This document shows positions 412-57,154 of a stretch of 64,000 bases of DNA, piece by piece. Under the pieces are notes generated by a model. It searched no databases and was not told where the DNA came from. It was given only the letters and a program-made list of their open reading frames with translations. Source of the DNA: an uncultured delta proteobacterium (GTDB taxonomy: Bacteria > Desulfobacterota > Binatia > UBA9968). A program made the position numbers and the translations under genes. The stretch is from assembly GCA_963760795.1 (NCBI GenBank), contig CAVXEP010000017.1:1-64000 (forward strand). The letters are read 5' to 3'. Position 1 is the stretch's first letter; each line of letters begins with the position of its first letter.

Positions 412-971
412 TCAGCTTGCGTGTAACTTCTCCGGCGCTTTCAAGCCACAGGTGGCTCTCCATTCTCCCGGTTCGCTGTCGATGAGCGTGAATAATTTCT
501 GATATTCTTCGACTTGCGCGTTGCCTTCCCAGGGTACGCTCTTGTGGGTGATCATAGCGTCGCGGTTCAGTATCCAGAGCGAGCGATAATAAAATCCACC
601 GTGGGGATGCTCTTTCTTTCGGATCAGGCCATAGCGCCGCGCGATGTCGAGGTCGCTGTCCGAGACGTAGAGATAAGGGAGTTCCTCGCGCAAGAGCGTG
701 AGAGCATATTGGCGATGTTCTTCGAGAGAATCGGGCGAGATCATGACGAGATTGGCTCCCGCCTTAAGAATTTTCGCATAGTCCTGCTTCAACGAAGCAG
801 CCATGCTGGCGGCTCAGTTCGGATGATATCGGTAACTATCCTGAGTCGTGAGAATGAGTTTCTCATGTCGCGCCGCCAGTTGATGCAGCGAAAACCTGCC
901 ATCCGAGGTGTGTCGATGAGAAACTCAGGGGCTTTTACTCCGACTCGTGGCGCTTTCGGTTTGGCGATCAT
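412..971 (-). CDS. Peroxiredoxin-like (AhpC/TSA, redoxin) selenoprotein; in-frame UGA at 816-814; one indel near 910
   Basis: Joined reading: MIAKPKAPRVGVKAPEFLIDT/SDGRFSLHQLAARHEKLILTTQDSYRYHPN*AASMAASLKQDY...VMISPD...LYVSDSDLDIARRYG...RSLWILN; Prx fold motifs; GAGGA RBS before ATG 971; hairpin follows the UGA. Confidence 0.75.
776..806 (-). promoter_or_regulatory. Putative bacterial SECIS element
   Basis: mRNA GCAUGG-CUGCUUC-GUU-GAAGCAG-GA-CUAUGC forms a two-part stem starting at the 8th nt after the UGA, with G in the apical loop. Confidence 0.65.
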
Positions 972-1015
972 ATTAATGTTCCTCGTTACCCTCAGTCCTC
1001 GGGCGACGCTGCTTT

Positions 1016-1621
1016 TTAACCGTAGCCAAAGACTTTTCGCTCCACGGTTCCGGCCTCGGCGTCGTACCAATTGCGCCAGGCGGTCTCCATCTCACGGCTG
1101 CGGATCACCACGCTCCAGTTTTCCGTCCGAGCAATTATCGCATGCGGCGCGCCGACTGGAATGACAATGACTTCTCCGGCACTTTGACGGATCGGCGGCA
1201 GCGGATGCAACTTGGCTCGGCCCGGTTCGCTGCCATCGTCCACGCGCTGGTAAATTTGCTGGACCGTCTCGCCTACCAATATACCGTAAACTGCCCAGCC
1301 GAGCTCGCCATGATCGTGCGGCTGCCGGCTGGTCGTGGAACGCTGGTGCGTAGGGCGGATACAGAATAGATGATCCGGATCCGTATAGAGCCGCCACGAA
1401 CCATAACCATCCTGATCCACAGGCTGGCCGTAGGGTATCGCTTTTCGTGACAGAACCCGTGCCAGCGATTCTTTGATCCGATCGAGGGAAGCGGGATTTG
1501 CTAGAAAGCGTTCCAGGCATTCCTTGCTCCGGCCAAGGATTCGACCGATCGTTGTCTCCGTTTCGAACGCAGAGCGCAGTTCCGCGATAAGGTTCTGCAC
1601 GGGATCGGTTGACTGACTCAT
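1016..1621 (-). CDS. Cysteine-dioxygenase-like cupin metalloenzyme
   Basis: PHDHG...WAVYG...Y.RVDDGS...PHAI, 3-His cupin pattern; GAGGG RBS before ATG 1621. Confidence 0.75.
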   Translation of the reverse strand: MSQSTDPVQNLIAELRSAFETETTIGRILGRSKECLERFLANPASLDRIKESLARVLSRKAIPYGQPVDQDGYGSWRLYTDPDHLFCIRPTHQRSTTSRQPHDHGELGWAVYGILVGETVQQIYQRVDDGSEPGRAKLHPLPPIRQSAGEVIVIPVGAPHAIIARTENWSVVIRSREMETAWRNWYDAEAGTVERKVFGYG

Positions 1622-1772
1622 GATTATCCCTCGTCGGTATTCGAGCACGATCTGGGTCACCGCCAGGTCGGGACTGGCCATATAAACAATCTAATCCCGC
1701 TAACTACTCGACGAATCATCTAGCAATGAGAATTCCCAACATCCACCGTGACACTCCGGCGATTTTCTATCC

Positions 1773-2169: not shown

Positions 2170-3842
2170 TTAGGCTTTGTTATCGTACGCCGACTTCTTA
2201 AACTCCGTCCGCATCTCCGACTGCAATCGTCCCAGGCGATACTTCTGCCAGTCCATAAACTTCCCCGACTCGGCCAGCGCCGGATGGACGGATTGAATCT
2301 TGCGCCACATCTCCTGGCAGATGAATCGATAGTCGGGATGGCCTTGCGGCATGGTGCGCAGCTCGCACATGTGCAGGGCTTCGCGCAGGTTCATCTTCAT
2401 GTACCAGCGGATCTTGTAGGCGAACGGCACGACGTACTGCGCTTCACTCGGCAGATCGGCATAAATCTGCTCGTACAACTCCGCCGTGCGTTTCATGCAA
2501 GCGGTCGAACTCGCTCTTGAACCCGCCCGCTTCGATCTCCGGCGGCGTGTCGTAGCCGTGCACCGTGGTAAAATCCTGGCGCTCCTGGGTGAGAATCCGG
2601 TGACGGTGCAGATCGCGGTACAATCCTAGATTGCCGAGAATATCGAAGGTGTAATAGACGTTCTCGAAAGCCCGGCTCAACTTGTCGCGGCGGTGGCGCC
2701 GCTTGGCAAAGTATTCTTGAAAAATCTGCTGGCGCTCCGCTTGGCTCAGCGCCGCCGGCGATCTTGCGCAATTGCTCCAGCGGTTGGCGCGCCTGGCCGT
2801 AGAGAATCGCCGCGAGCACTTTCTCTTCCGCGTCCGCATCGTAATCGACCAGCGTCACCGGCTCGTTGGCGGCGACCGGAGTCTGAGCCGTCGCACCGGC
2901 CGCCAGCGCTTTCGCCGCCGCGGTCGTCGCGACCAGATAGTCATTGCGCTGCGCCCGTTTGACGAAGGACGGAATCAGTTGATTCAGTTCGCCGTGAATC
3001 GCCGCGCCGAGCGCTTGCGCTTCGCTCAAGTCGTGCGAGTAGAACTTGCTGATCAGATACTCGAACGCCTGGCCGGCGCCGAACATGCCGACGTTGGTCA
3101 GCGTCGCCGCCGGCAGATAACTGCGCAGCACGTCGCAAGCCTGCGCCCGCACCGTGGCGCGGTAGGCGGTCTCGGCCCAGCGCTTTAACCGCTCGTCTTT
3201 CGCCGCTTCGCCGTAACTCAAACCTTTGCCCGAAACCGGATCGCGGACTTCGAGCTGGTCGATCGGCAGCGATTTGGCGACGTGATCGAGCATCGGCTCC
3301 ATCTGTTTGGAGTAGGTTTCGAACAGCAGATTCATCACTTCGAGATAAGCGTCGCGGTGGCGCGACGCCATGATTTTCGGCTCGCGGTAAAAGAGATAAT
3401 TACCGGCGGCGTCCTTCTGATCGAAGCGCACATAGCGCGTCGACTTTTCCAGCGGCGCGATGCCGATGCGCGCGTCTTCCAATAATTTCGCGGCCACGTT
3501 GGAAATGTTTTCGCAGGCGATATGCGCCCCGCCCAACTGGGCGACGGAATCGTCGCCATAGCCAACCAGCACTCGCTCGAAGAACGCCCGGGCTTTTTTC
3601 ACCGCCGCGCTATCGTCGCCGGCGGGCAACTGGCCGCCGAGCAGGTCTTTCAACGCCAGCTCGGGGTCGCCGAGAAACTCGTCGAGGAAAGTCCGGCGCA
3701 AATCTTTGGCCGAGCGGCTGTAGCGGGAGAACAGCGCGCCGGCCACTTCCTGCGGCAGTTTGAGCCCAAAGGTGTCGCGTTCGAGATTGGTAAAAAAAGG
3801 CGCTAGCCGTTTTTGTTCGTCGGAGCTGAACTCTGGGGCCAT
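2170..3842 (-). CDS. thyX: FAD-dependent thymidylate synthase, long tandem-domain form (two indels, ~2497 and ~2750)
   Basis: ALFSRYSRS, GYGDDSVAQL, LEKSTRYV, RDLHRHR, ELRTMPQGHPDYR spread over ORFs 2493..3842, 2444..2839 and 2170..2496. Confidence 0.85.
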
Positions 3843-7902: not shown

Positions 7903-7963
7903 ATAATCGCTCAGGGAATTTATGATCGCTGGATTCATCATGTGGAGTACCGGAGATAGAAAA

Positions 7964-8560
7964 TTGAAAACACCATGGCTCATGGCCGGCTTGGTTGCCG
8001 GCGTATTAGCGGCAAATCCGCTCTTCGGCCAGCTCGGACCCAAAGATCCAACCAGCGGCAGCGCCACCGAAATCGACCGCATCAAAATCGGTCAAGCCGC
8101 CCCCGACTTCGGCCTGGAAAACGTCGAAGGCCAAGCCATCAACCTGTCCGACTTTCGCGGCAAGAAAGCGGTGGTGTTGGTTTTCTACCGCGGTTACTGG
8201 TGACCCTTCTGCATGGAACAGCTCGGGAAGCTGAAAAGCCTTTTGACCAAAGCACAGAAAGACAAGGTGCAGATCCTCGCGGTCAGCGTCGATACCCGGG
8301 AGGAATCGAAAAAATTCGGCGAGATGCTGCGCAAGCGCTTCGACGGCGAATTCGATTTTCCGCTATTGGAAGACAAGGATCATAAAGTGATCGACCGCTA
8401 TGGGATTTTTAACCCGGACGGCAAAGGCTGGCCCTACCCATCGACCTTCGTAATCGATCCCCAGGGTGTGGTGCGCTGGCGCTTCATCGAAAAGACCCAA
8501 GACAAACGGCCGTCCAATCAGCAGATCGTCGCCGAACTGAGAAAGATCAAGTCGCTGTAG
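7964..8560 (+). CDS. Exported peroxiredoxin-like (AhpC/TSA) selenoprotein with UxxC motif; in-frame UGA 8201-8203
   Basis: ORFs 7922..8203 and 8213..8560 are in the same frame, joined by TGA: VVLVFYRGYW*PFCMEQL; signal-peptide-like N-terminus from TTG 7964 after GGAG. Confidence 0.88.
8219..8233 (+). promoter_or_regulatory. Putative SECIS hairpin
   Basis: CAGCT-CGGGA-AGCTG stem-loop 15 nt downstream of the UGA, with G-rich loop. Confidence 0.55.
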
Positions 8561-10666: not shown

Positions 10667-12216
10667 TCACGGTTTACGCCAGCGCCGGCCGTCGCGCTGC
10701 ATGAACTCATCCGCCTCTGCCGGACCCCAGCTGCCAGCCGCATAATTGGGGAAAGTTTTCGGCTTACTCAAATTCCACACTTGAATGATCGGGTCGGTCA
10801 ACGACCACGCCGCTTCCACCCAATCATGGCGTGTGAAAAGTGTCGAATCCCCCTCAATACAATCTTCCAGTAGCGTTTCGTAGGCCTCGGGGGAACCGCT
10901 GCCAAAAGCTTCCTCGTAGTTGAAGTCCAAACTCAGCGGACTGACGACCATGTTCGACCCGGGCGGCTTGACTTCAAACGTCAGCGACACGCCTTCATCC
11001 GGTTGAATGCGCATGACCAAAACGTTGGGATTGACGTTGTCCAGCGCGTGGGACTTGAACAGTAGCAGCGGCGGCCGCTTGAACTGAATCGCCACTTCGG
11101 TGACCCGCTTTGCCATGCGCTTGCCCGAACGCAAATAAAACGGCACGCCTTCCCAACGCCAGTTGTCGATGTAAAATTTGAGCGCGGCGTAGGTTACCGT
11201 CGCCGAGTTCTTGTGGACCCCGCTCTCCTGCCGGTAACCCGGTACCTTCTGATCGCCGAGCAGACCCGGACCATACTGTCCGCGCACCGCTGCCGAGGCG
11301 ACTTCCTCCGACGCAATGGCGCGCACCGATTTTAGCAGCTTGCCCTTCTCGTCACGCACCGCGTCGGCGGTGAAACCCACCGGCGGCTCCATGGCGGTGA
11401 GACAGAGCAGTTGAAGCAAATGATTCTGAAACATATCGCGCACGACACCCGCTTCTTCGTAGTAACCGCCGCGGTTTTCCACGCCGACGCTCTCAGCCGC
11501 AGTGATCTGGACATGATCGACATAGCGGCGGTTCCAGATCGGCTCGAACACGGCGTTGGCGAAGCGGAACACCATGATATTTTGCACGGTCTCTTTGCCG
11601 AGATAGTGGTCGATGCGGTACACCTGGTTTTCATCGAGCACCTCGTGCACCCGGCGATTGAGCTCCCGCGCGGTTTGCAGGTCGGTGCCGAACGGCTTTT
11701 CAATGACCACGCGAGTGCGCGCCTCGCCGTCGGTTTCCTTGGGCGCCAACCCCGCCGCGGCGATGCGCTCGATGACCGGACCGTAGAGATCCGGCGGCGT
11801 CGCCAGGTAAAATACCCGGCGCCGGCAACACCCGGCTGCTGCGATCGAAGCCGTCGATGAACTCCTTCAAGCTCTGATAGCCGTCGGCTTCCTCGTAGCC
11901 GCCGCGAACGTAATAGAGCGTTGTGGCGAACTAGTTCCCAGACCGCTTGGTCTTGCAAGTCCGGTGCGGGAGAACTCTTGCACCGCCTCGCGCATCTTGT
12001 CGCGAAACACTTCATGGGTCATTTCGCTGCGCGCGTAGCCGACCACGGCGAAGCGCTCCGGCAAGCTTCTTTTCCAGCGCTAAATTATACAGCGCTGGGA
12101 TCAGCTTGCGTTTGGTCAGATCGCCGGACGCGCCAAAAATCGTCACCACACAGCCGTGCGGTTTTTTCGCTTGTCCCAAACTCTGGTGCAGATAATCTTG
12201 CGCCGTCGCTCGCCAT
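10667..12216 (-). CDS. zwf: Glucose-6-phosphate 1-dehydrogenase (several indels in 5' half)
   Basis: [59 protein letters not shown]. Confidence 0.93.
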
Positions 12217-12222
12217 CGGCGA

Positions 12223-13120
12223 TTACCCCTTTTTCACCGCATGGCCGCCGAACTCGTTGCGCAGCGCGGCGATGACTTTGTTGGAAAACGCATCCTGCTG
12301 GCGCGACGCGAAGCGCGCGAACAGCGAATGGGCCAAAGTCGGCGCCGCGACGCCTTTTTCAATCGCTTCGATGACCGTCCAGCGCCCTTCGCCGGAATCT
12401 TCGACATAGCCTTTGATCGCATCGAGCTTGGGATCTTTTTCAAAGGCGCTCTCGCACAACTCGAGCAGCCAGGAACGCACCACGCTGCCTTGATTCCACA
12501 GATGGGAAATCTTCGCCAGATCGAGATCGAACTGCGAGGCTTTGAGCAATCTCGAAGCCTTCGCCGTAGGCCTGCATCATGCCGTACTCGATGCCGTTGT
12601 GAATCATCTTGACGAAGTGACCGGCGCCGTTGGGACCGGCGTGCAGATAGCCGTCCTTCGGCGCCAGCGTGAGAAAGATCGGCTCCAAGCGGCCGACGAT
12701 TTCCTTGTCGCCGCCGACCATCATGCAGTAGCCGTTTTGCAGTCCCCAGATGCCGCCGCTGGTGCCGGCGTCGACGAAGTGGAGCTTGTGCGGCTTAAGT
12801 TTCTCGGCGCGCCGGATGGAGTCTTTGTAGTTGGAGTTGCCGCCGTCGATGATGATGTCGCCTTCGGCCAAACTCGGCAGTAACTGCTCGATGGTCTGGT
12901 CCACCGCATCGCCCGACGGCACCATCAGCCAAATCGCCCGCGGCAATGATAATTGCTTGACGAAGTCGGCGAGCGAGTGCGCGCCCACCGCGCCTTTGTC
13001 GACGACTCGTTGAATCGCCTCGGCGCTGCGGTCGTAAGTAATCACCTTATGACCGCCGCGCACCAGCCGCTCGGTCATGTTGGCGCCCATTCGGCCTAAG
13101 CCGATCATGCCCAATTCCAT
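12223..13120 (-). CDS. gnd: 6-phosphogluconate dehydrogenase, short decarboxylating type (indel ~12550)
   Basis: [49 protein letters not shown]. Confidence 0.93.
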
Positions 13121-18573: not shown

Positions 18574-19270
18574 TCAGACTTTTGACGCAGGCGAAAATCC
18601 GAACTTTTCCAAGCAAGCCAATGTCCGGCTCAGCCCTGCGCGCAATTCCGACTTCGGCAATTGCCACAATCGTTGAAAATCTTCAGCCACGTCGAGGTCG
18701 AACCAAGTCGGCAGCACGCTATAGGGCAGGCTAAGGGCGTCGAGTCGCGCGGTCGTGTCAGCGAAAACCCGGTCATGGCTCCAGGTCATGTTGGCGAATA
18801 TCTCCGGCGTCGGCTCGATTCATGCCGACTAAGTAATAGCCGCCGTCCGCGCTCGGTCCCAAGACTACTCGCCGCTCCGCTTGCGCCAACCGACTAATTG
18901 CTTCATCAAGAATTGCCCAAGGCAAAGCCGGCAAATCGCTGCCGATGAGGACAATGTTACGATGTCCCAGGTGCCAAAGATCGGCGAAGACTTGCTCCAT
19001 GCGCGCGCCGAGATCGCCATCGGATTGCGCCAGATAGACATAACCGGCGCCAGCGAGTTCCCGCATAACATTTTCGGCGTCAGCCGGTGTGTAAAACACA
19101 TAGCTCTCGACGCCGGTGAAATTTCTCAGATGGTCGAACTGATCGAGCAGCAGCGCGCGACAGATCTCCGCCGCTTGCGCCGGCGTCAACGGCGGCACCA
19201 AGCGGGTCTTCACCGTTCCCGCCACCGGCGCCTTGGCCATGATGGCAAGCGCGTTAACGTGTGTCGGCAT
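18574..19270 (-). CDS. TIGR04282/DUF2064 glycosyltransferase-like protein, arsenosugar-cluster associated (indel ~18810)
   Basis: MAKAPVAGTVKTRL, QSDGDLGARM, IGSDLP, VLGPSADGGYYL, WFDLDVAED. Confidence 0.85.
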
Positions 19271-19931
19271 AGAACTGTTTCAAGCGGGCCGGCGAAACAC
19301 CGGTGAGATAGAGTAGCTTCAGCGTCCACATGCGAAAAATCGTCCGCCACACGCCGTCCACTTCCCAACGGCGCGCCGAGGTCACCACCCGGCTGCGCAG
19401 GCAGGCGACTTCGCCCAGCCGCTTGAGCGCGCGGCAGAACGCGATGTCTTCCATGAGTGGAATGTCCGCGAAACCGCCCATGCGCTGGAACACTTCGCGG
19501 CGCGCGAACAGCGCCTGATCGCCGGTGGCGACTTTGGAGAGCCGCGAGCGATAGCTAATCAGCCGCCCGACCAGCGGCAACATCCAGTGCTTGCCGTCGA
19601 GCTCGACATCGAAGCGGCCGCCGACATAGCGAGGATCGCCCATCGCGCCGGCGATGTCGCTGAACGCCGTTGACGGCAAACGCGTGTCAGCGTGGAGAAA
19701 TAACAAGACATCGCCGCTCGCCTCCCGCGCGCCGCGATTCATCTGGCGCGCCCGGCCGCGCTCCGACGGGATCACTTTAACGCCGAACTCGGCGGCGATC
19801 TCCGCCGTTCGGTCCTGGCTGCCGCCGTCGACAACGATGGTTTCGTAAGGTTGCAGGCGCGCCAGCGCCTGCAAGGTCGCGGCGATCGATTTCTCTTCGT
19901 TGAGCACCGGCACGATGACCGAGATGTTCAT
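19254..19931 (-). CDS. TIGR04283 family GT2 glycosyltransferase, arsenosugar-cluster associated
   Basis: SVIVPVLNE, VDGGS, GRARQMN, FLHADT, GDQALF, PLMED, TSARRW. Confidence 0.9.
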   Translation of the reverse strand: MNISVIVPVLNEEKSIAATLQALARLQPYETIVVDGGSQDRTAEIAAEFGVKVIPSERGRARQMNRGAREASGDVLLFLHADTRLPSTAFSDIAGAMGDPRYVGGRFDVELDGKHWMLPLVGRLISYRSRLSKVATGDQALFARREVFQRMGGFADIPLMEDIAFCRALKRLGEVACLRSRVVTSARRWEVDGVWRTIFRMWTLKLLYLTGVSPARLKQFYADTR

Positions 19932-19948
19932 CGGACCTCTGGTGCGAC

Positions 19949-20800
19949 TTACGGCTTTAGGTCGACGCCGTTCAAGCGCCAATCGTAGTCGTGACTCAAG
20001 CCGCCCTGGTATTTTTCCAACGCCCCCGACAGTCCTGGATTTGCATAATTCCGCCAGTGCTCCATCAGCCCTTCAGCGTCGCCGCCAAAATCTTCTTGGA
20101 ACCAGACATAGATGCTCGACACCTTGAGCTTGCCGCCGGTGAGCGCTACGCCGCGCGGGTGATTGATGAATTCCTTGGCGCCCTTGTCGAGCAGCGCTTC
20201 GGTGTTTTCGCCGGTGTAAGCCGCCGGCTGTAAATTCGGGCAGCCCAAACTGGCGCAGTTGACCGCGTAATGAATCCGCTCATCTTTCCAGATCGGCCGC
20301 AAGATCCGATGCTCAATGTCATCCAGCGACAGCTTCTCGCCTTCCACCGTGAGCAATTTAGCGCCCCAAGGTCCGCGCGCCAGTAAGCCGGGAGAGATAT
20401 TGATGTCGCGGATCGACGCCACCGGAAAGCGCGACAGAATCAAATCGACGGTGAGCGCGTTGTAGAGATTGATCCAGTACGCCTGCTGCTCTTTGCGGTT
20501 ATAGCTGGAGATCGAAATCCCTTGCAGGCTCTGGAGATAATTCTTTAAAACCTTTTGATCCTCCGGGCGAATTTCTTGATAGCGCACCCGATTGATCCCC
20601 GATGGATGGATTACGACATACTGCTTGAGCAAACGATCCCAAGCCCCGTGTTCGATTGTTTGCCCGCTCGCCGGATCATGCTTCTGCCAGCGCGCCCACA
20701 ACTCCGCCTTGGGCGCGGCCTGCACGTCACTTACCAAGACCGCGCACATCGCCAATATCGCAATCCACGCGATTTGAATTCGAAACCCCTTACTCCTCAC
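19949..20800 (-). CDS. DUF547 domain exported protein
   Basis: AYWINLYNA, SLDDIEH.ILR, RIHYAVNCASLGCP, SSIYVWF.EDF; signal peptide. Confidence 0.9.
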   Translation of the reverse strand: MRSKGFRIQIAWIAILAMCAVLVSDVQAAPKAELWARWQKHDPASGQTIEHGAWDRLLKQYVVIHPSGINRVRYQEIRPEDQKVLKNYLQSLQGISISSYNRKEQQAYWINLYNALTVDLILSRFPVASIRDINISPGLLARGPWGAKLLTVEGEKLSLDDIEHRILRPIWKDERIHYAVNCASLGCPNLQPAAYTGENTEALLDKGAKEFINHPRGVALTGGKLKVSSIYVWFQEDFGGDAEGLMEHWRNYANPGLSGALEKYQGGLSHDYDWRLNGVDLKP

Positions 20801-20821
20801 CCTTTACTCCTTACCCTCTTC

Positions 20822-23075
20822 TCACCGTCGCCACTCCAACCATTTGGCAAATATCTTTTTCACCGTCGGCGTCAGCTTGGTGCGCATATAGCCATCGCCG
20901 ATTTTGCGCAGCACCTCGGCCTGAGTCGGGTACGAATGAATCGTCGACGACAAGACGCCAACCGTCTGCTTCGCCGTAATCGCCAGCGTCAGCTCGCCCA
21001 ACATTTCGCCGGCATGGCGCGCGACGATGGTGCCGCCGAGAATCCTAGCAGTTTTCTTGTCGTAGTGAACCCGGGCAAACCCTTCCGCCTCGCCGTCGAG
21101 GATCGCCCGGTCGACATCGGCGAGGGACTGCGTGATCGTCGCCACATCGTAGCCCGCGGCCTGGGCATCCTTTTCATAATAGCCGACGTGAGCGATCTCC
21201 GGGTCGGTATAGGTGCACCAGGGCATGATCAAATCGGTCGCCTTGCGCCGCGACAGAAACAGCGCGTTGGCGATGACGATGCGCGCCATGGCATCGGCGG
21301 CATGGGTAAATTGGTAGCGCGAGCAAACATCGCCGGCGGCAAATACTCGAGGATTAGACGTGCGCATGCGCGCATCGACTTCGATGCCGCGCCTGCCATA
21401 GCGTACTCCGGCGGCTTCCAAACCCAATCCTTCGAGATTTGCCGTGCGCCCCACCGCTACGAGGATCGCGTCGCAAGCTAAATTCATCGGCTGGTCGCCG
21501 ATATTTAGCGATAAACTCTTCGCGCCGTTCACCTGCGCGGCGCTGTTGAATCTTCGCGCCGGTGATAATCGTCACGCCGTCTTTTTCGATTTGCTGACGG
21601 ACCACCGCCGCGGCGTCGCGATCCTCGCGCGGCATGATCGACCCACCGTCGGTGAGCAAAGTCACTTGGCTGCCGAAGCGTTGAAAACTTTGCGCCAGCT
21701 CGCAACCGATGGGCCCGGCGCCGATGACGGCTAGCCGACGCGGCAATTCGGTGAGCGTGAAAATCGTTTCGTTGGTGTAGTAGCCAGCTTCGCGCAGGCC
21801 GGTGATCGCCGGCTCGGCGGCGCGCGCGCCGGTGGCGATTACCGCGCGGTTGAACCGTAGACGTTTGCCGTCGACTTCGATGGTGTTGGGATCGACGAAG
21901 CGGCCATGGCCGATGAAGACATCTACGCCCAACTTGCGGAATCGCTCCGCCGAATCATGTTCGCTGATGCCAGCGCGCAGCCGGCGCATGCGCTCCATCG
22001 CCGCGGCAAAATCGATCTGCGGCTCGCCGGCATGGTGAACGCCGAACTCGGCGCCGTTGCGCGCGTCATGGGCGGCCCGCGCCGCGCGGATCACGCCCTT
22101 GGACGGCACGCAGCCAACGTTGAGGCAATCGCCGCCCAAGAGATTACGCTCGATCAGCGCGACCTTCGCGCCCAGCCCAGCTGCGCCGGCGGCGCTGACC
22201 AATCCCGCCGTACCGCCGCCGATGACAACCATATTGTATTTTCCCGCCGGTGTCGGATTGCTCCAGTGCGGCGGATGGCAGTTGTCGATCAGCCGTTTGT
22301 CGTGGGCATCGTCGGCAAGCAGCATTTCATCATAGGCCGCGGGTTTGTGCCGCGGATTGAGCAGCGGCTGACCGGTCGTGACACTTCCTTCTTGTTGCTG
22401 TTCCGCCTCACGCAACGCTTTGCGCGCGATGCGTGTCACGACCACGACCACTGCGACAGTCGCCAGCAATCCGACATATTTCACAATCGTTTGATAAAAA
22501 CCGGCGGAAGCGTCGGCTTGGCCGGCCAGCGCGTCGCGCGCCGCCGCGCCGATGTAGACGAATAAGAAAGTCGCCGGCAGCATGCCGAGTAAGTTGGCCA
22601 GCACATACGACGGCGTGCGCACCGCCGTGAGGCCAAGCAAATAGTTCAGCAGGACGAATGGAAACACCGGGCTTAATCGGGTCAGCAAAACCATCTTGAA
22701 ACCCTGCTTGCCGATGGCCTGATCGAGGGAGCGAAATTTCGGATTGGCGGACGCCCAGCTTGTGACTTTTTCGCGCAGGAAACTCCGCGCTAAGAGAAAT
22801 GACGTTAGAGCGCCGAGATTGGCGCCGATAACGACGACGATCAATCCAGTCGACAGGCCAAACAAAGTTCCTGAGCCGATGGTGATGGCGCTGCCCGGTA
22901 TGAACAGCACGGTGCACAAGACATATGCTAACACCATTACGACAGGCCCGATGGGTCCGAGCGACCGCACGTGGCCCTCGATCTGCATGAACCAAGCGCG
23001 CACCGGCAGAAACAGCAAGCCGACAAAAAGCACCGCCAGCAACAACGAAATCATTACAAGTTTGAGCCTTTTCAT
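20822..23075 (-). CDS. VTT/TVP38 (DedA-like) membrane domain fused to MerA-like pyridine nucleotide-disulfide oxidoreductase (indel ~21535)
   Basis: N-term LTRLSPVFPFVLLNY; C-term GGGTAG, GGDCLNVGCVPSK, GAGPIGCE, HSYPTQAE; no MerA C-terminal CC pair. Confidence 0.85.
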
Positions 23076-23158
23076 GATTCTCGTTAGCTGCGAGACGCCC
23101 TCGATGAGTTCTGTTTACTCCGTCAGAAATGAACGGCTGCTCGGACGAAATCACTGTG

Positions 23159-24122
23159 TCAGATCAGCGTGCCGCCGCAACTGCTACCGCTACCAGCAGT
23201 GCAAGCGTAGCAGTGATCGCCGATGATAATTGCCGGCTTGGTAACCTGTTCTAACGTAAGCGCAGCGATGTGCAGAGGTTTGCCGCCGCCGCTGTCGGCG
23301 ATCGGCAGATCGAGCATTTGATTGAAGTCACAGTCGTAAATCCCACCGTCCCAACCAACACTGATCAAATTGCGGCACATGACTTGATCGACGGTGGCGG
23401 CGTTGAAGCTGTTTTCAAGCAAATCCATATAAGGCTCATACTCGCGCGCGCAGTTTGAGATGAGTCGCGTAGCGTGTGATCGGCATGTTGGTGAGACAGA
23501 ACAGATGATTGAACTCGATGCCGAACTGTTCAGCGAGAATTCGCTTGTAGTCCTGCTCAAGTTTCTCCTGCGGCGGCGGTAAGTGCGGATCGACCGGATT
23601 GTAGACCAGATTTAGGACCAAGCCGCTGTCCGGTTGGCCGTAGCCGAGTTCGTTGAAAATTTGCAACGCCCGAATGCTGCCATCAAAGGTTCCTTTGCCG
23701 CGTTGCTTATCGACGTTTTCGATCGAGTAACAAGGTAGCGAACAAACCAATTCTACTTGATGACAGCGAAAAAACTCCGGCAAGTAGTCCTTGCCCGGCT
23801 CGAAGATCACCGTCAGATTGCAGCGATCCATCACATGCCGACCGAGCCCGCGCGCTGATGCGACCAGATAATCGAAATCCGCGTGGAGCTCCGGCGCCCC
23901 GCCGGTGATATCGAGAGTCGGAATGTTGGTATCGCCGAGAAAGCGCAGCACCGCGTCGACATTCTCCCGGCTCATCATCTCCTTGCGCGTCGGCCCCGCT
24001 TCGACGTGGCAGTGAATGCACGCCAAGTTGCAGTAGCGCCCAAGATTCACCTGCAGGACATCGACGGCCCGCCGCTTGAGTCCATTGCCGTTTAGATGCA
24101 GTCTTTCAGCGAAGGGTTGCAT
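23159..24122 (-). CDS. arsS: Arsenosugar biosynthesis radical SAM protein ArsS-like (TIGR04167 type; indel ~23450)
   Basis: LQVNLGRYCNLACIHCH, DITGGAPE, YDCDFNQML, HCYACTAGSGSSCGG. Confidence 0.85.
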
Positions 24123-24184
24123 GGCAGGATTCTATGAATTCGTACGCACTCGTAAATTTTGACTTTAAAATTTTACCTTTTTAC

Positions 24185-25378
24185 TTACGGACAACAGTTC
24201 GACCCCGGCCCGCACACCGCAGCGGAAATTTGCGTGACCTTGTACTCCAGCCCCTTGGTCTCCCGTGGATGGCGTTTGTGATCGCGCAAGCAGTCAAACA
24301 CGCCGGCGTTTTCCAACGCCACCTGTGTCCGTGGCGGCACCAGAATAAACTGTCCGGCATAAGGCGACTGGGAATAAAGTTTGAAAGTCTTGTCGCACAC
24401 CGCCATGCGCGCGCCGCGCTCCAGCGTATGACCGTCGTCGTCGACCACTTGTTTCCACGGGCCGCGGTAAATCACCGCATGATTGCGCTCGATGCACGGG
24501 CCCTCTTTACCTTTGTACGCCGTCACGGTAACGGCGCGAAACTCGATGCCCTCGACGGTCTGGTACGCTTCCGTGCGCAATTCTTCGATCTGAATGCCAT
24601 GAAACTTGGCGTCCTCGAAGGCGCGCAAGAAGTCCTCCTCTTGAAACGCACCCGACACACAGGCGCTCCACAGAGCGGGATCATTGGCTAAATGCTCGGG
24701 CACCGCCTCGTCGCTGACGATATCGGAGATCGCAATCCGCCCGCCGCGCTTGAGCACGCGGTACATCTCGGCGAATAATTGTTTCTTGTCCTCGGGCCGG
24801 ACGAGATTGAGCACGCAGTTGGACACGATCACGTCGATGGACTCATCGGCGATGAGTGGCTGTTCCTGGCGCACCTTCGCTTGGTAATCTTGCAGGTTGG
24901 CCAGATCGGCCACGGAGCGAACCGGATTAGCTTGTAGATAGCCATCGACTAAATCGACATCGGTTTGCAAGTCTTGAATCTTGCCGCGGCGAAACTCGAC
25001 GTTGTTAAAGCCCAGTTTTTCGCCGATGGATTTCTGGTACTTGCGCGCCAACTCCAACATCGGCGGATTGAAATCGACGCCGATGACTTTGCCATTGGCG
25101 CCGACAATTTGGCAAATAATGTAGCAGGCCTTGCCGCTGCCCGAACCGAGATCGAGGACCGTCTCTCCGGGATGAATGAAACGCGACGGGTCGCCGCAGC
25201 CGTAGTCCTTTTCGATAATTTCGTCCGGGATGACTTTGAGTAAAGCCTTGTCGTAACTAACCGGCAGGCAGAGACAAGCTTCGACTTCCTCGGCGGCGTT
25301 GCCATAGCGCTGCAACACAGCCGCTTCCAAGTCAGTAGGTCCATTACTAACGCCGCGGTTGACAATCTCCGAATCCAT
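24185..25378 (-). CDS. ArsM-like arsenite SAM methyltransferase
   Basis: LCLPVSY, DYGCGDP, LDLGSGSGK, SNCVLNL, W.ACVSGA, Cys-rich C-terminus CGPGSNCC; directly upstream of arsS. Confidence 0.8.
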   Translation of the reverse strand: MDSEIVNRGVSNGPTDLEAAVLQRYGNAAEEVEACLCLPVSYDKALLKVIPDEIIEKDYGCGDPSRFIHPGETVLDLGSGSGKACYIICQIVGANGKVIGVDFNPPMLELARKYQKSIGEKLGFNNVEFRRGKIQDLQTDVDLVDGYLQANPVRSVADLANLQDYQAKVRQEQPLIADESIDVIVSNCVLNLVRPEDKKQLFAEMYRVLKRGGRIAISDIVSDEAVPEHLANDPALWSACVSGAFQEEDFLRAFEDAKFHGIQIEELRTEAYQTVEGIEFRAVTVTAYKGKEGPCIERNHAVIYRGPWKQVVDDDGHTLERGARMAVCDKTFKLYSQSPYAGQFILVPPRTQVALENAGVFDCLRDHKRHPRETKGLEYKVTQISAAVCGPGSNCCP

Positions 25379-25579
25379 AACCCCTCCGACAATTGGCTGC
25401 GAACTTGATCGATGCCGAGAAAATCATCTTGATCGAATCGGCGCAAGCTAAAACCGCACACACCCAGCCAGCGCAATTGTTTAGATGTCGTCACAACGAC
25501 AGAAGTTGCCGAAAAGTTCCGTGGGGCTGGGCGGGGCGGACGTCTTGCCCCTCACTCCTTACCCCTCACCTTCTTAAAC

Positions 25580-26684
25580 TTAAACCGGCTCGTCCGCCAT
25601 CAAAAGATAGGCTTCGATAAACTGATCGAGATCGCCGTCGAGCACCGAATCGGCGTTGCCGACCTCGACATTGGTGCGGTGGTCCTTGACCAGGCGGTAG
25701 GGCGCGAGCACATAGGAGCGGATCTGGCTGCCCCAGGCGATGTCTTTCTTGGTCTTGTGATAGGACTCCATCTTTTCTTTTTGTTTTTTGACCTCGAGCT
25801 CGTAAAGCCGCGATTTGAGAATCTTCATCGCCATGGCGCGGTTTTTATGCTGCGAACGTTCGTTTTGACAGGCGACCACGATATTGGTCGGCAGATGGGT
25901 CAAGCGCACCGCCGAATCGGTTTTATTGACATGCTGGCCGCCGGCGCCGCTGGAGCGGTAGGTATCGACGCGCAGATCGTCGTCATTAATTTCGATTTTA
26001 ATATCGTCGTCGACCTCGGGATAAACGAAGACCGATGCGAACGATGTATGGCGGCGCGAGTTGGCATCGAAGGGAGAGATCCGCACCAAGCGGTGAATTC
26101 CGGCTTCGGCTTTGAGATATCCGTAAGCATAGTCGCCGGTAACGCTGAACGTAACGCTTTTGACCCCCGCTTCCTCGCCCGGCTGATAATCGAGTATCTC
26201 TTTGCGATAACCGCGCCGGTCGCACCAGCGCAGATACATGCGCAGGAGAATCTCGGCCCAGTCCTGCGCCTCGGTGCCGCCGGCGCCGGGATGAAGCGTA
26301 ATCAGAGCGTTACGCCGGTCGTCGGGCTCGCCGAGAAGCTGAGCAAGCTCGGTCTGGGCCATCTCCTTGGTGATCGCTGTGACTTTGCCGGCGGCTTCGC
26401 CGAGCGCGTCTTCGCTTTTCTCGTCTCTAGCGACGTCGAGAAAAAACCGTGCCTCTTCAAGATCGGCTTGATGTTTTTCCCAACTCGAGAGAATCGCTTT
26501 GAGAGCGGACTGTTCTTTGAGAACGGTTTGGGCTTTGTCGGCGTCGTTCCAGAAATCCGGCTGGGCGGTGATTTGGCTCAGCTCTTCGACGCGCTTCTGC
26601 TTGCTGTCGACGTCAAAGCCGCCTCCGCAGCTGCTCAAGACGCCCTTCGAGATGGGTAAGTTGTTCTGTGGTATCTTCGATCAT
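25580..26684 (-). CDS. prfB: Peptide chain release factor 2 (programmed +1 frameshift)
   Basis: SPF and GGQ motifs; first 23 codons MIEDTTEQLTHLEGRLEQLRRRL end at CTT TGA C. Confidence 0.96.
26612..26626 (-). promoter_or_regulatory. prfB +1 frameshift site with internal Shine-Dalgarno
   Basis: mRNA GGAGG-CGG-CUU-UGA-C, the canonical RF2 autoregulatory signal. Confidence 0.93.
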
Positions 26685-41661: not shown

Positions 41662-42159
41662 ATGAATCTGCAATTTATCCTAAACGGCAAGCCCTGGTCG
41701 GTGGAGTGCGAGCCGGCGGACACGCTGGCCGAGGTGCTGCGCAATCAGCTCAACTTGAACGGCACGAAAGTGTCCTGCGAAGTGCAAGTGTGCGGCGCCT
41801 GCACGGTGCTGGTCGATAATCTGCCGGTGAGCGCCTGCACCTATCTCGCCTACGAAGCGCGCGGCAAAAACCTCTTGACCGTCGAAGGTTTGGAAAAAGC
41901 CGATGGCACGCTGCATCCGATCCAGCAGGCCTTCATCGACGAGTTCGCCTTTCAGTGCGGCTTCTGCACGCCGGGCATGATCATGGCGACCAAAGCGCTG
42001 TTGGATGAGATTCCCAATCCGACTCGCGAAGAGATCATCCACCACATGGACGGCAATATCTGCCGCTGCACCGGCTACGTGCCGATCGTCGCCGCCATCC
42101 AACGCGCCGCCGGCATGATGTCCAAGGAGATCCCAAGTGAGCGCCGAAAAGCCAACTGA
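41662..42159 (+). CDS. Molybdenum hydroxylase small 2x[2Fe-2S] subunit (CoxS/XdhC-like)
   Basis: CEVQVCGACTVL, QCGFCTPG, NICRCTGY. Confidence 0.92.
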   Translation: MNLQFILNGKPWSVECEPADTLAEVLRNQLNLNGTKVSCEVQVCGACTVLVDNLPVSACTYLAYEARGKNLLTVEGLEKADGTLHPIQQAFIDEFAFQCGFCTPGMIMATKALLDEIPNPTREEIIHHMDGNICRCTGYVPIVAAIQRAAGMMSKEIPSERRKAN

Positions 42160-44414
42160 ATTTCACATCGTCAATCATTCGATTCCGCGACGCGATGGCC
42201 GGGTCAAGGTCACCGGTAAAGCGCAATATGTCGCCGACCTGCGGCTCATCGGCATGGCCTACGCGAAAGTGCTGCGCAGTCCGGTCGCCCATGCGAAAAT
42301 TATTGCCATCGACAAGTCGAAAGCCGAATCCCACCCCGGCGTCTACTGCGTCGTCACCGGCTACGATCTCGACGGGTTGAATCCCTACTTCGGCCACGCC
42401 GTCAAAGACCATCCGCTTATTAGCAATCGACAAGGTGCGCTACACCGGCGAGCCGGTGGCCGCGGTGGTCGCCGTCGACGAGCGCACCGCCTTCGAAGCC
42501 TTGGAATTCATCGACGTCAAATACGAAGAGCTCAAAGGCGTCTTCACGCCGCAAGAGGCGCTGGCCAAAGATGCGCCGTTGTTGCACGACCGGAAATTCG
42601 AAGCCGGCGCGCTGCGCGGTTTCGAGGGCGAAGTTACCGCCGGCAAAGGCACAAATATTTGCCAGACGCACAAGATTCAGTGGGGCGATGTCGAGAAGGC
42701 ATTCAAGGAAGCCGCCGCGGTGGTCGAGGGCGACTATTATTTTCCCATGACCTACGCCTACGCCATGGAACCCTATGTCGCCATCGCCGATGTCAGCGAC
42801 CAGGGCGTGAATGTTTATTCGTCGGCGCAGCACCCGTTCATGGTGCGCCATGATCTGAAATCGATTTTCAATTTACCGGTCAGCAAGGTCCGTCTGATCG
42901 TGCCCTTCGTCGGCGGCGGTTACGGCAGCAAGTCCTACACCAAAGTCGAACCGCTGGTCGCCGCCTGCTCGTGGAAAGCCAAACGGCCGGTGAAACTGCA
43001 ACTCACCGTCGAAGAAGCGATGTTGACCACCCGCAGCGACGACGCCTACACCTGGATGCGCACCGCGGTGGATAAGAACGGTAAAATAATCGCGCGCCAG
43101 GCGAAAATCATGATGAACACCGGCGCCTACGCCGAGAACAGCCCGCTGGTGGTCGAGAAATCGACCAACCGCTGCGTCGGTCCCTATGCGATCGCCAATG
43201 TGCTGATCGAGAACATGTCGCTTTATACCAATACCGTGCCGGCCAGTTCATACCGCGGTTTCGGCTGCGCCCAAGTGACGCTGCCCGGCGAATCGCAGAT
43301 CGACGAGCTGGCGGCCAAGATCGGCAAAGATCCCTACCAGTTTCGGCTAGAGAATGCGGCCAAACCCGGCGAAGAATTTTTTCCCGGCATGCGCCCCTTC
43401 GACGGCACGCTCAAACAAGATTTAGACACCGCGGCCAAAGCGATCGGTTGGGGCACGCCGTTGGCGAAAGGCCATGGCCGCACCGTCGCCGTCTCCGGCA
43501 GCGACGCCGGCGCTTATCCGCTGACTTCAACGGCCGTGCGCGTCCACGCCGACGGTTCGGCGACCATCATGACCGGCAGCACCGAGCTGGGCCAGGGCAG
43601 CCACACCGTCCTGCCGCAGATCGCCGCCGAAGAATTGGGCATCGCCTACGACCAAGTCAACGTGGTGTCGTCGGACACCGCGATCACGCCCTACGATCGC
43701 TCCACCGGCGCCAGCCGGACAACGACGCTGATGGGCAGCGCGGTGATGGAAGCTTGCCAGGAAGCGATTCAGCAGATGGTCGTCATGGCCGCCGATGTGC
43801 TCAAGGTCAAAGTCGAAGAGATTGAAAAAGTGCGCGGCGGCGTCCGCTGCGGCGAGGTTGAGCTTAACTGGTCCCAGGTGATCAGCAAATTTTACGCTCT
43901 ACCCGACGGCGAAGTGATCGGCCGCTCGTACATTAGAAAGTCCGGCAGATTCGCCGCGCTGCCGGTGTTCTGGGAAGCCGCCGCCACCGGCGTGGAACTC
44001 TCCGTCGACGAAGACACCGGCAAGATCACCATGGAGAAACTCGCCACCGTCGGCGATGTCGGTTTGGCGATCAATCCGGCGCTGGCCGAAGGCCAAGACA
44101 TCGGCGCCGCGACCATGGGCATGGGCATCGGCCTGTTCGAAGAATTGATTTACGAAGGCTCGCAGTTGATGAACGGCTCGATCCTCGACTACCGTTTGCC
44201 GCGCTTCTCCGATTTACCGAAACAAGTCGAGCTCCACTTGGTGCAAAACCGCGACGGTGTCGGCCCCTATGGCGCCAAAGGCGGCGGCGAAGCGTCGCTG
44301 AACTCCATGGCCGCCAACATCGCCAACGCCGTCGACAAAGCCGTCGGCGTGCGCATCCGCCAAGCGCCGCTCACGCCGGAACGAGTCTGGCGCGCACTGA
44401 AAGAAAAGAAATGA
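42137..44414 (+). CDS. Xanthine-dehydrogenase-family molybdopterin large subunit (indel ~42420)
   Basis: KVTGKAQY, GGGYGSK, SYRGFG, ELGQG, GAKGGGE. Confidence 0.9.
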
Positions 44415-55611: not shown

Positions 55612-57154
55612 CGTTCTTGCGCTCCGCGCTGACACCGGATTGGGCAGCCACCGGTATGACTGGCATGGTGAAGATTCGTTTCAAATTAACGTCCACCGCC
55701 GGCTGCATGCGGCTCAAGAACGGCTGCGGATAGACACCCATGTAGAGGATCAAGAAAATGATCGGCGCTAAAATGACCCATTCCCGGCAATTTAGATCTT
55801 GCAGCTTTTGATTCTCCGGGTTGTTGAGCGGTCCGAAGATCACCCGGCGAAACATCCACAGCATATAGATCGCGCCAAGAATCACGCCGGTGGCGGCCAC
55901 CGCGGTCCAGCGCGGGGTCACGCTAAACGATCCGAGCAAGATCAGGAACTCGCCGACGAAACCGTTCAGGCCAGGCAGCCCGATGGACGAAAAGGTCACG
56001 ACCAGAAGCAAAGCTGAAAACACCGGCATCTGTTTCCACAGCCCGCCAAACTCCACGATCATCCGCGTATGGCGGCGGTCGTAGATCATGCCGACCATGA
56101 GAAACAGCGCGCCGGTGGACAGGCCATGGCTGAGCATTTGATAGATGCTGCCCTGCACGCCCTGCATGTTGAGGGCGCAGAGTCCGAGCATGACGAAACC
56201 CAAATGGCTGACCGACGAATAGGCGACGAGCTTCTTAATGTCGCTCTGCATCATCGCCACCACCGCGCCGTAGATGATGCCGATGACCGACAGGGCGACC
56301 AGGTAGGGCATCAGCGCGATCGCCGCGTCGGGAAAGAGCGGCATGGCGAAGCGCAAAAAGCCGTAGGTGCCGAGCTTCAACAGCACGCCGGCAAGAATCA
56401 CCGATCCGGCGGTGGGTGCCTCCACATGGGCGTCAGGAAGCCAGGTATGAAACGGAAACAGCGGGACCTTGATAGCGAACGACAACGCGAAAGCGAGGAA
56501 CAGCCAGGTTTGCTGCTCAACCGGCAGATGCAGGTCATAGAGTTGCAAGACATCGAAGGTCAGCACCTGGGTGACCTGGGCGTGGCGTGTGGCCAGATAA
56601 ATAATCGCCACCAGCATGAGCAAACTGCCGGCCATGGTGAACAGGACGAATTTCACCGCCGCATAGATGCGCCGCGTGCCGCCCCACACACCGATCAAAA
56701 AATACATCGGCACCAGCATCACTTCCCAGAAGACATAGAACAGCACCAGATCGAGCGCTAAGAACGCGCCAAGCATGCCGGTTTCCAAGAGCAGCATAAA
56801 AATCAAATACTCTTTGACCTTGTCGCGCACCGACCAGGAAGCCAACAGCGCCAGCGGCATGAGAAAAGTCGTGAGCAAAACCAGAAAAATGCTGATGCCG
56901 TCGATGCCGAGAATATATTGAATGCCAAAGGCCGGCATCCACGCCACCCGCTCGACCAGCTGCATCTCGCCATTAGTGCCGTCGAAGCGGTCGAGAATTT
57001 TTAGCGACCAGAGAAACGCCACCGCGCTGGCGAGCAATGCAAAGGAGAACAGCCCGGCCGACTGGCGCCGCGGCAAAAACACTAACACCGCCGCGCCGAT
57101 CACCGGGATGGCGAGTAGCAGAGTCAAATCTCCGAAACCCTGGGCTGACATCAT
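55601..57154 (-). CDS. nuoM: NADH-quinone oxidoreductase subunit M
   Basis: GIDGIS, FYVFWE, KVPLFPFHTWLPDAHVEAPT, AYSSVSHLG. Confidence 0.96.
   Translation of the reverse strand: MMSAQGFGDLTLLLAIPVIGAAVLVFLPRRQSAGLFSFALLASAVAFLWSLKILDRFDGTNGEMQLVERVAWMPAFGIQYILGIDGISIFLVLLTTFLMPLALLASWSVRDKVKEYLIFMLLLETGMLGAFLALDLVLFYVFWEVMLVPMYFLIGVWGGTRRIYAAVKFVLFTMAGSLLMLVAIIYLATRHAQVTQVLTFDVLQLYDLHLPVEQQTWLFLAFALSFAIKVPLFPFHTWLPDAHVEAPTAGSVILAGVLLKLGTYGFLRFAMPLFPDAAIALMPYLVALSVIGIIYGAVVAMMQSDIKKLVAYSSVSHLGFVMLGLCALNMQGVQGSIYQMLSHGLSTGALFLMVGMIYDRRHTRMIVEFGGLWKQMPVFSALLLVVTFSSIGLPGLNGFVGEFLILLGSFSVTPRWTAVAATGVILGAIYMLWMFRRVIFGPLNNPENQKLQDLNCREWVILAPIIFLILYMGVYPQPFLSRMQPAVDVNLKRIFTMPVIPVAAQSGVSAERKNDGR

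Follow-up and report, generated by a model that had tools for sequence, protein, structure and literature searches.

A probable selenoprotein of the peroxiredoxin fold with an HxxU active site from an uncultured, Binatia-associated bacterium

Several families of selenoprotein with the peroxiredoxin (Prx) fold have been described. The 2026 review PMC13188914 lists, in its tabulated material, Prx itself (TxxU, where U is selenocysteine, Sec), a Prx-like thiol:disulfide oxidoreductase (UxxC/UxxU), a Redoxin family (UxxC) and Prx-SUH (CxxU), together with an entry 'Peroxiredoxin-like (AhpC/TSA), cd02970, UxxS'. The table of the GOS survey contains TxxU, UxxC and UGC forms, and counts 253 Sec forms and 7,348 Cys forms of Prx (PMC2398784). 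Here we describe a gene at 971..412 on the minus strand of a 64,000-nucleotide stretch (contig CAVXEP010000017.1, positions 1 to 64,000; hereafter the window) from an uncultured delta proteobacterium assigned to the Binatia. We put the probability at roughly 0.87 that it is a genuine selenoprotein gene and belongs to a subfamily of its own within the peroxiredoxin (AhpC/TSA) fold, one associated with Binatia. The gene carries an in-frame UGA in an HxxU context, and no HxxU site is described in the material of PMC13188914 and PMC2398784 that we could draw on. A keyword search found no literature on selenoproteins or selenocysteine in Binatota/Binatia, and the excerpt of BSepDB Table S1 (PMC13326102) available to us places Binatia among the genomes analysed and is silent on their use of Sec. 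The family is apparently an undescribed HxxU variant of the Prx-fold selenoproteins, unless it is the one already catalogued as the UxxS cd02970 entry.

The described families share some features with the window family and differ in others. PrxU, of the Eubacterium acidaminophilum type (PF00578, TxxU; NF040737), has the same AhpC/TSA fold, Sec at the peroxidatic position, a retained catalytic Arg and a bacterial Sec insertion sequence (SECIS) hairpin just past the UGA. By contrast, the window family has HxxU rather than TxxU and has lost the Pro of PxxxTxxU, and the window protein is not a PrxU ortholog because it scores 13.7 bits against NF040737, for which the cutoff is 270. Cys forms, which number 7,348 for Prx in the GOS table (PMC2398784), are nearly absent from the window family. 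Proteins of the BCP/PrxQ type (5enu, 3drn) are the best matches in both sequence and structure, with a monomer-sized domain of ~160 aa and the same order of secondary-structure elements; however, they use Cys in a TPxC motif, whereas the window family has Sec in HPNU and is further set apart by an SYR insertion ahead of this motif, by an HPHGG loop that precedes the Arg strand and by a conserved Cys in a C-terminal tail. The Prx-like thiol:disulfide oxidoreductase selenoproteins (UxxC/UxxU; 'Prx-like 1-3' in the table of PMC2398784) belong to the same superfamily and suffer the same truncation by gene callers, and the window itself holds a member of this type at 7922..8560, in which Sec lies three residues before the position matched to Sec52 (U52) of our protein, as extrapolated from Pfam profile coordinates. 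Unlike that type, the Prx gene reads U-A-A-S (U-A-A-G in the related locus L003), with Ser rather than Cys at +3 and Sec at the peroxidatic position. The UxxS AhpC/TSA family (cd02970), whose representative in PMC13188914 is MDX2448127.1, is alike in the literal motif, U-A-A-S, a likeness that extends to the motif listed in PMC13188914 only.

Calling of open reading frames (ORFs) under translation table 11 splits the gene into a 130-aa ORF at 412..804(-) and a 60-residue piece that starts at an ATG (971-969) in another frame. Read upstream of its own Met, the frame of the 130-aa ORF runs ...DGRFSLHQLAARHEKLILTTQDSYRYHPN-TGA-AASMAASLKQDY..., with the TGA at 816-814 followed by AAS and then the Met of the ORF. 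Both the split and the frame that joins an in-frame TGA to the C-terminal ORF are thus as claimed in a preliminary description of this DNA. We scanned one genome per species of the GTDB set for related loci, and nine of 16 pattern matches were confirmed as relatives by tblastn (L001-L009); six are labelled as metagenome-assembled genomes (MAGs) of 'uncultured delta proteobacterium', two as 'Candidatus Binatia bacterium' and one, on an 8.6-kb contig, as 'Chloroflexota bacterium'. All nine have TGA in the same column, in the context DSYR[Y/F]HPN-TGA-AA[S/G][M/V]AASL[K/R][Q/H]DY, and in all nine the N-terminal 51 codons share a frame with the downstream part. Residues -14 to -1 before the TGA are conserved in the protein while their codons vary, with synonymous diversity of 0.76, 0.64 and 0.67 at codons -10, -5 and -2, indicating that the upstream frame is coding and continuous with the downstream frame. 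The preliminary description had named a non-conserved upstream frame as grounds for abandoning its proposal; the frame proved to be conserved. A reassigned genetic code was considered and rejected, because TGA acts as an ordinary stop in the window: it terminates 23 of the 53 Pfam-matched ORFs, and the Prx gene as well. The Chloroflexota-labelled contig (L005, JBLMXG010000266.1) has a Prx gene 79% identical to that of the window and a cupin neighbour with 86% amino acid identity to its counterpart there, which suggests, on these sequence comparisons, a mis-binned Binatia-type contig rather than a second phylum.

Protein databases give a complementary view of the same column. A word-indexed search of 5.8 billion proteins found 381 homologs, of which 120 were listed, with 82-94% identity and lengths of 124-137 aa; 109 of these 120 are exactly 130 aa long, and every one begins M[A/T]AS[L/F][K/R], its first residue being the Met four codons past the TGA. 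Gene callers take the UGA for a stop and begin anew at this Met, and the family is therefore seen in databases as proteins of ~130 aa. The one example with an NCBI name is a 'redoxin domain-containing protein' of 130 aa, and a query of the ESM Atlas with the plain 130-aa ORF retrieved only AhpC/TSA-type clusters of ~120-133 aa. We also searched 1.84 billion representatives exhaustively with HMMER, which gave 37 matches with E <= 0.001, 23 of them with E <= 1e-10. Among these matches, P0126 (216 aa, 50% identity) is the sole family-level sequence with a residue at the TGA column; the residue is Cys, in ...DSYRFHRS-C-SGSLMASLRQGY. P0146 (78 aa), by contrast, is an N-terminal ORF that stops exactly at ...DSYRFHPN. 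With P0126 as the query, the only match among 1615 candidates was P0126 itself, so this search revealed no further Cys forms. Homologs that span the UGA column have either TGA (nine of nine loci) or Cys (P0126) there, the comparison that the preliminary description had proposed. Its description of the gene as unannotated also holds, in that all 120 listed homologs start past the TGA and no NCBIfam model matches at its cutoff, the only NCBIfam matches being weak, sub-cutoff ones to peroxiredoxins.

Downstream of the UGA, the RNA is predicted to form a SECIS-like hairpin at 776..806(-). It begins 10 nt past the UGA and has a 6-bp lower stem (GCAUGG/CUAUGC), a GA bulge, a 7-bp upper stem (CUGCUUC/GAAGCAG; 800-794 with 790-784) and a GUU loop (793-791) that lies 20 nt past the UGA, so that the 13-bp bulged stem-loop of the preliminary description folds exactly as it was written there. 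The hairpin alone has a fold energy of -14.5 kcal/mol and the upper stem -8.9 kcal/mol; in a 60-nt context the energy is -23.3 kcal/mol (z = -2.31), and four of 200 shuffled sequences fold as well. According to the legend to Fig. 2 of PMC13188914, a bacterial SECIS (bSECIS) element has a loop of 3-9 nt that carries a G among its first two nucleotides, an upper stem of 4-16 bp, a UGA-to-loop distance of 16-37 nt and a minimum free energy of <= -7.5 kcal/mol. With its 3-nt GUU loop, 7-bp upper stem, 20-nt spacing and -14.5 kcal/mol, the hairpin lies within all four of these published limits, which answers the call of the preliminary description for a check against bacterial SECIS elements. We measured synonymous-site diversity in nine sequences, leaving out L009, which is frameshifted downstream. 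Diversity at codons +5 to +10, which make up the upper stem and loop, is 0.037, as compared to 0.398 outside codons +1 to +13, and is the lowest of 125 sliding windows; for codons +1 to +13 as a whole it is 0.223 (permutation p 0.009). The hairpin is conserved in all 10 sequences, minor mismatches aside: standard pairs fill 95.4% of the pair cells, and there are one double change from A-U to G-C and three wobble changes. The suppression of synonymous change is stronger evidence for the hairpin than covariation, for which sequences so alike give little statistical support.

When the TGA is read as a residue, the protein matches Pfam AhpC-TSA (PF00578) with an E-value of 7.5e-11 and 42.5 bits, against a cutoff of 26, and matches Redoxin (PF08534) just under the cutoff. 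In phmmer alignments to proteins of known structure (PDB), 'yHPNc' pairs with 'nTPGc' of 5enu (Burkholderia BCP) and 'fTPVc' of 5ovq (Aquifex AhpC2), and 'gfyyRSLW' pairs with the catalytic-Arg strand of both. BLASTP and MAFFT alignments with distant canonical peroxiredoxins give the same pairing, column 52 and R129 being invariant in a MAFFT alignment that includes seven canonical Prx sequences. These alignments support the earlier proposal that the UGA occupies the peroxidatic-Cys column. Because the window copy is broken, we modelled the intact ortholog from L001 (about 92-93% identical) with AlphaFold2 (AF2), obtaining a predicted local distance difference test (pLDDT) score of 84.9 and a predicted template modelling (pTM) score of 0.81. 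In this model U52 falls in the first turn of helix alpha-2 (residues 50-69); confidence is low for the ~20 residues at the C-terminus. A Foldseek search of the PDB with the model returned BCP and Prx6 peroxiredoxins at the top, the best being 5enu (E 1.3e-11, TM score 0.79 by target length).

The active site departs from the canonical motif, PxxxT/SxxC, in which a conserved Thr or Ser stands three residues before the peroxidatic Cys (PMC13188914, in its account of Prx). In place of this Thr/Ser the window protein, all nine loci and P0126 have His (H49), and the sequence TTQDSYRYHPNU contains a three-residue insertion and has no Pro at -7. The catalytic Arg (R129) is retained in all 120 listed homologs, as are both His residues of an HPHGG motif (H121 and H123). 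The preliminary description was right to call the HPNU motif non-canonical; it is better written H-x-x-U-x-x-S, with His for Thr, Pro lost and Arg kept. The Cys near the C-terminus that it noted in EWRATCG (Cys174, codon 450-448) is present in 118 of the 120 listed homologs and in five of six divergent members, and is a candidate resolving Cys, located in the lower-confidence tail of the model. Together, the alignments and the model support the placement of Sec at the peroxidatic position of a Prx fold with a non-canonical His-Sec-Arg site.

The same departures raise the question of whether the enzyme is a peroxidase. His, Sec and Arg, together with HPHGG, might instead act on an organosulfur or organoselenium compound or on a metal(loid). 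The replacement of Thr by His and the loss of Pro in the otherwise universal PxxxTxxC are consistent with such a role, as are the invariance of H121 and H123 in the 120 listed homologs, the near absence of Cys forms, and the presence, in four of 10 loci, of an upstream cupin gene whose product is related to mercaptosuccinate dioxygenase 8vni (E 1.4e-6). However, the Arg and Sec together mark the peroxidatic site, the fold matches BCP and Prx6 best, and the gene neighbourhood is not conserved in six of 10 loci. We consider a selenoprotein with non-peroxidase activity unlikely, yet a serious possibility. A bolder proposal is that the family is obligately selenium-dependent, with a new His-Sec-Arg site on the Prx scaffold, is confined to Binatia-type soil bacteria and performs chemistry other than classical peroxide reduction, for instance on organosulfur or organoselenium compounds, with which the mercaptosuccinate-dioxygenase-like neighbour in four of 10 loci would agree; if true, this would explain why Cys versions are nearly never seen. 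We regard this proposal as rather doubtful.

The reading of the gene as a selenoprotein also has to account for the break that separates its first codons from the rest. The N-terminal 22 codons (MIAKPKAPRVGVKAPEFLIDTP; 906..971, minus strand), in the frame of the ATG at 971-969, align with the N-termini of the nine loci, and the 60-residue piece loses homology after them. Two surplus bases, CG (904..905, minus strand), then break the frame, and 29 codons (DGRFSLHQLAARHEKLILTTQDSYRYHPN; 817..903, minus strand) follow in the frame of the TGA and the 130-aa ORF. The preliminary description placed one indel within a run at ~910; the indel is indeed single, but it is a 2-nt insertion directly 3' of the GACACACC run (914-907) rather than within it. 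In alignment, the window has ACACCTCGGATGGC (ACACCT-CG-GATGGC) where L001 and L009, the two closest relatives, have ACACCC--GATGGC, and the other seven loci share the gap. The CG at 905-904 is the sole frame-breaking difference between the window gene and the nine loci. At least five other genes of the window are split into overlapping ORFs on the same strand with continuing profile coordinates: the ArsS radical-SAM gene (23162-24122; TIGR04167 positions 2-212, then 212-303), 6-phosphogluconate dehydrogenase (6PGD), the molybdenum hydroxylase large subunit, a pyridine-nucleotide disulfide oxidoreductase (20825-23075) and NuoL. This window-wide splitting is a pattern typical of uncorrected assembly indels. 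Because the surplus is absent from all nine loci and at least five other genes of the window are split, the break at 905-904 is, on the sequence comparison, most likely an assembly error private to the window rather than biology. A programmed frameshift at this site was rejected, since no ortholog has the shift. L009, the closest relative (91-94% nucleotide identity), has a frameshift of its own inside the Prx gene (L009:6094-6549), after ...KILKAGAE and at a site other than that of the window, and differs from the window by 29 gaps over the adjoining 1.8 kb. Broken genes in the window as a whole span 12226-13120, 20825-23075, 23162-24122, 42137-44411 and 57154-59053, and also 2173-3842 and 10670-12015; its ThyX-like and G6PD genes are without their N-terminal parts, and several genes are without N-terminal profile positions.

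Two frame interruptions within 90 nt, in a window with many further broken genes, could also be taken as the marks of a pseudogene, an ordinary Cys-peroxiredoxin inactivated twice, by the frameshift and by the TGA. The TGA, however, is not a lesion: it is shared by all nine orthologs, at 69-93% identity, with the protein conserved on both sides of it, and the 120 listed homologs all start just past it. The 2-nt surplus alone is private to the window, the gene being otherwise about 92-93% identical to the intact L001, and the residues checked are the family's commonest letter save at variable position 104. We therefore judge decay of a Cys-peroxiredoxin to be improbable. A still fainter prospect is that the TGA is a true stop between two cistrons, a 51-aa peptide and a 130-aa protein from ATG 804 that perhaps reassemble, as the annotation by gene callers and the ATG 9 nt past the TGA in nine of 10 sequences would allow. 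Against it, such a split would deprive the protein of its active-site residue and sever the fold between strand beta-3 and helix alpha-2, and P0126 runs uninterrupted through the column, where it has Cys. In L007 the Met position is occupied by GTC, which is not a start codon, and the 9 nt from TGA to ATG show no evident Shine-Dalgarno motif. The hairpin, conserved and with little synonymous change, is in keeping with a SECIS element.

Several observations weigh against the selenoprotein reading or parts of it. In the hairpin, an A.C mismatch interrupts the lower stem of three of the 10 sequences, and two of the upper-stem pairs of L006 do not form in the common register. Covariation does not exceed that of shuffled alignments, 185 of 500 of which reach the observed score, and a scan of the whole window with Rfam at gathering thresholds gave no matches. 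We did not find selA, selB, selD or tRNA-Sec in the 64-kb window or the nine loci, and ARAGORN identified no tRNA of any kind, tRNA-Sec included, in the same sequences. It is also conceivable that the frame break is genuine and reflects a mutation that recently inactivated the gene in the strain. Cys174 is missing from L008 and from some divergent members. Finally, the peroxidase chemistry is one that we infer, and the loss of Thr and Pro, which position the peroxide in canonical peroxiredoxins, could mean that the substrate is another. With regard to the hairpin of L006 (L006:6094-6153), the upper stem has U changed to G on the 5' arm and G changed to C on the 3' arm, the latter converting Q to H in the protein; by eye, seven pairs are restored if one A is bulged, a possible compensatory re-registering.

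Under the selenoprotein reading, the gene as a whole (412..971, minus strand) would encode a Sec-containing Prx-fold protein of ~185 aa once the two surplus bases are removed, and orthologs L002 and L003 are 185 aa in a single frame. A Shine-Dalgarno-like GAGGAA (979..984, minus strand) lies 7 nt 5' of the ATG, with GAGGAG at the equivalent place in L001, L002, L003 and L009. The His at the catalytic-Thr position is codon 825-823, and the proposed Sec codon, U52, is the TGA at 814..816. The C-terminal 133 codons (415..813, minus strand) include the catalytic Arg (585-583), the HPHGG motif and the candidate resolving Cys. The gene ends with a second TGA (412..414, minus strand), which lacks a hairpin context and is taken as the stop codon; L002-L006 end at the same place with TGA. 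In the mechanism that we propose, the UGA at 816-814 would be read as Sec, with the hairpin at 806..776 recruiting SelB with Sec-tRNA(Sec). U52 would stand at the peroxidatic-Cys position alongside the retained R129, with H49 in place of Thr and Pro lost after the three-residue insertion. Its selenolate would be oxidised to selenenic acid by peroxide or a similar two-electron oxidant, the selenenic acid would be resolved by the conserved Cys174, located in the flexible tail at the C-terminus, or by a thiol from outside the protein, and the enzyme may then be recycled by a thioredoxin-type reductant.

The gene directly upstream of the Prx gene, at 1016..1681(-) and separated from it by 44 nt, is without a Pfam or NCBIfam match and is the relative of the cupin thiol dioxygenase 8vni (E 1.4e-6) mentioned above. 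This cupin is the upstream neighbour in the window, L003, L005 and L009, and is the only recurring neighbour; a Pfam search of 39 of the 75 neighbouring ORFs around the nine loci revealed no conserved partner gene. P0146 is an apparent fusion of the cupin's first residues with the N-terminus of the Prx protein.

A further gene of the window, at 7922..8560(+), likewise has an in-frame TGA. Its TGA (8201-8203) lies in VFYRGYW-TGA-PFC, a motif of the UxxC type, and the product is a secreted-looking AhpC/TSA/ResA-like protein. Among 120 listed homologs, 111 are 97-115 aa long and nine are longer; three of the nine, of 172-196 aa, read S or W at the TGA column, and the W could come from contigs called under a TGA=Trp code. 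A hairpin, CAGCU-CGGGA-AGCUG, has its loop 20 nt past this UGA, with a fold energy of -4.2 to -5.3 kcal/mol, short of the -7.5 kcal/mol bSECIS limit, and a z-score of +0.62 (65 nt). The presence of this second gene is indirect support for a Sec trait in the organism. Further along, at 19250..25400(-), is a cluster of the arsenosugar/arsenolipid type. It comprises the ArsS radical-SAM '(seleno)protein' gene (TIGR04167) in two pieces, 23439-24122 and 23162-23560, an ArsM-like methyltransferase gene (24188-25378), the split VTT-domain/pyridine-nucleotide disulfide oxidoreductase gene (20825-23075), and DUF547, GT2 and DUF2064 genes. ArsS matches its profile through the C-terminus, so the break, which falls at profile position 212, has the look of a frameshift rather than of a Sec codon. 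The release factor 2 gene, prfB, lies at 25583..26638(-) (TIGR00020, E 4.7e-159); its ORF begins at position 14 of the profile, as it would if the gene had the customary programmed +1 frameshift close to its N-terminus.

If the selenoprotein reading is correct, the gene brings a well-supported family into the bacterial selenoproteome, from a soil lineage that is uncultured and little studied. Its members are mis-annotated throughout the databases searched, and a hidden Markov model combined with a recoding rule would correct hundreds of records. For the annotation of MAGs, it matters that the apparent gene breaks of the window would be a mix of true recoding, in two UGA-Sec genes, and assembly indels. 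For the family itself, the gene would represent a natural experiment on the Prx active site, in which Sec is the peroxidatic residue, His stands where Thr was supposed to be universal, and Cys forms are nearly absent.

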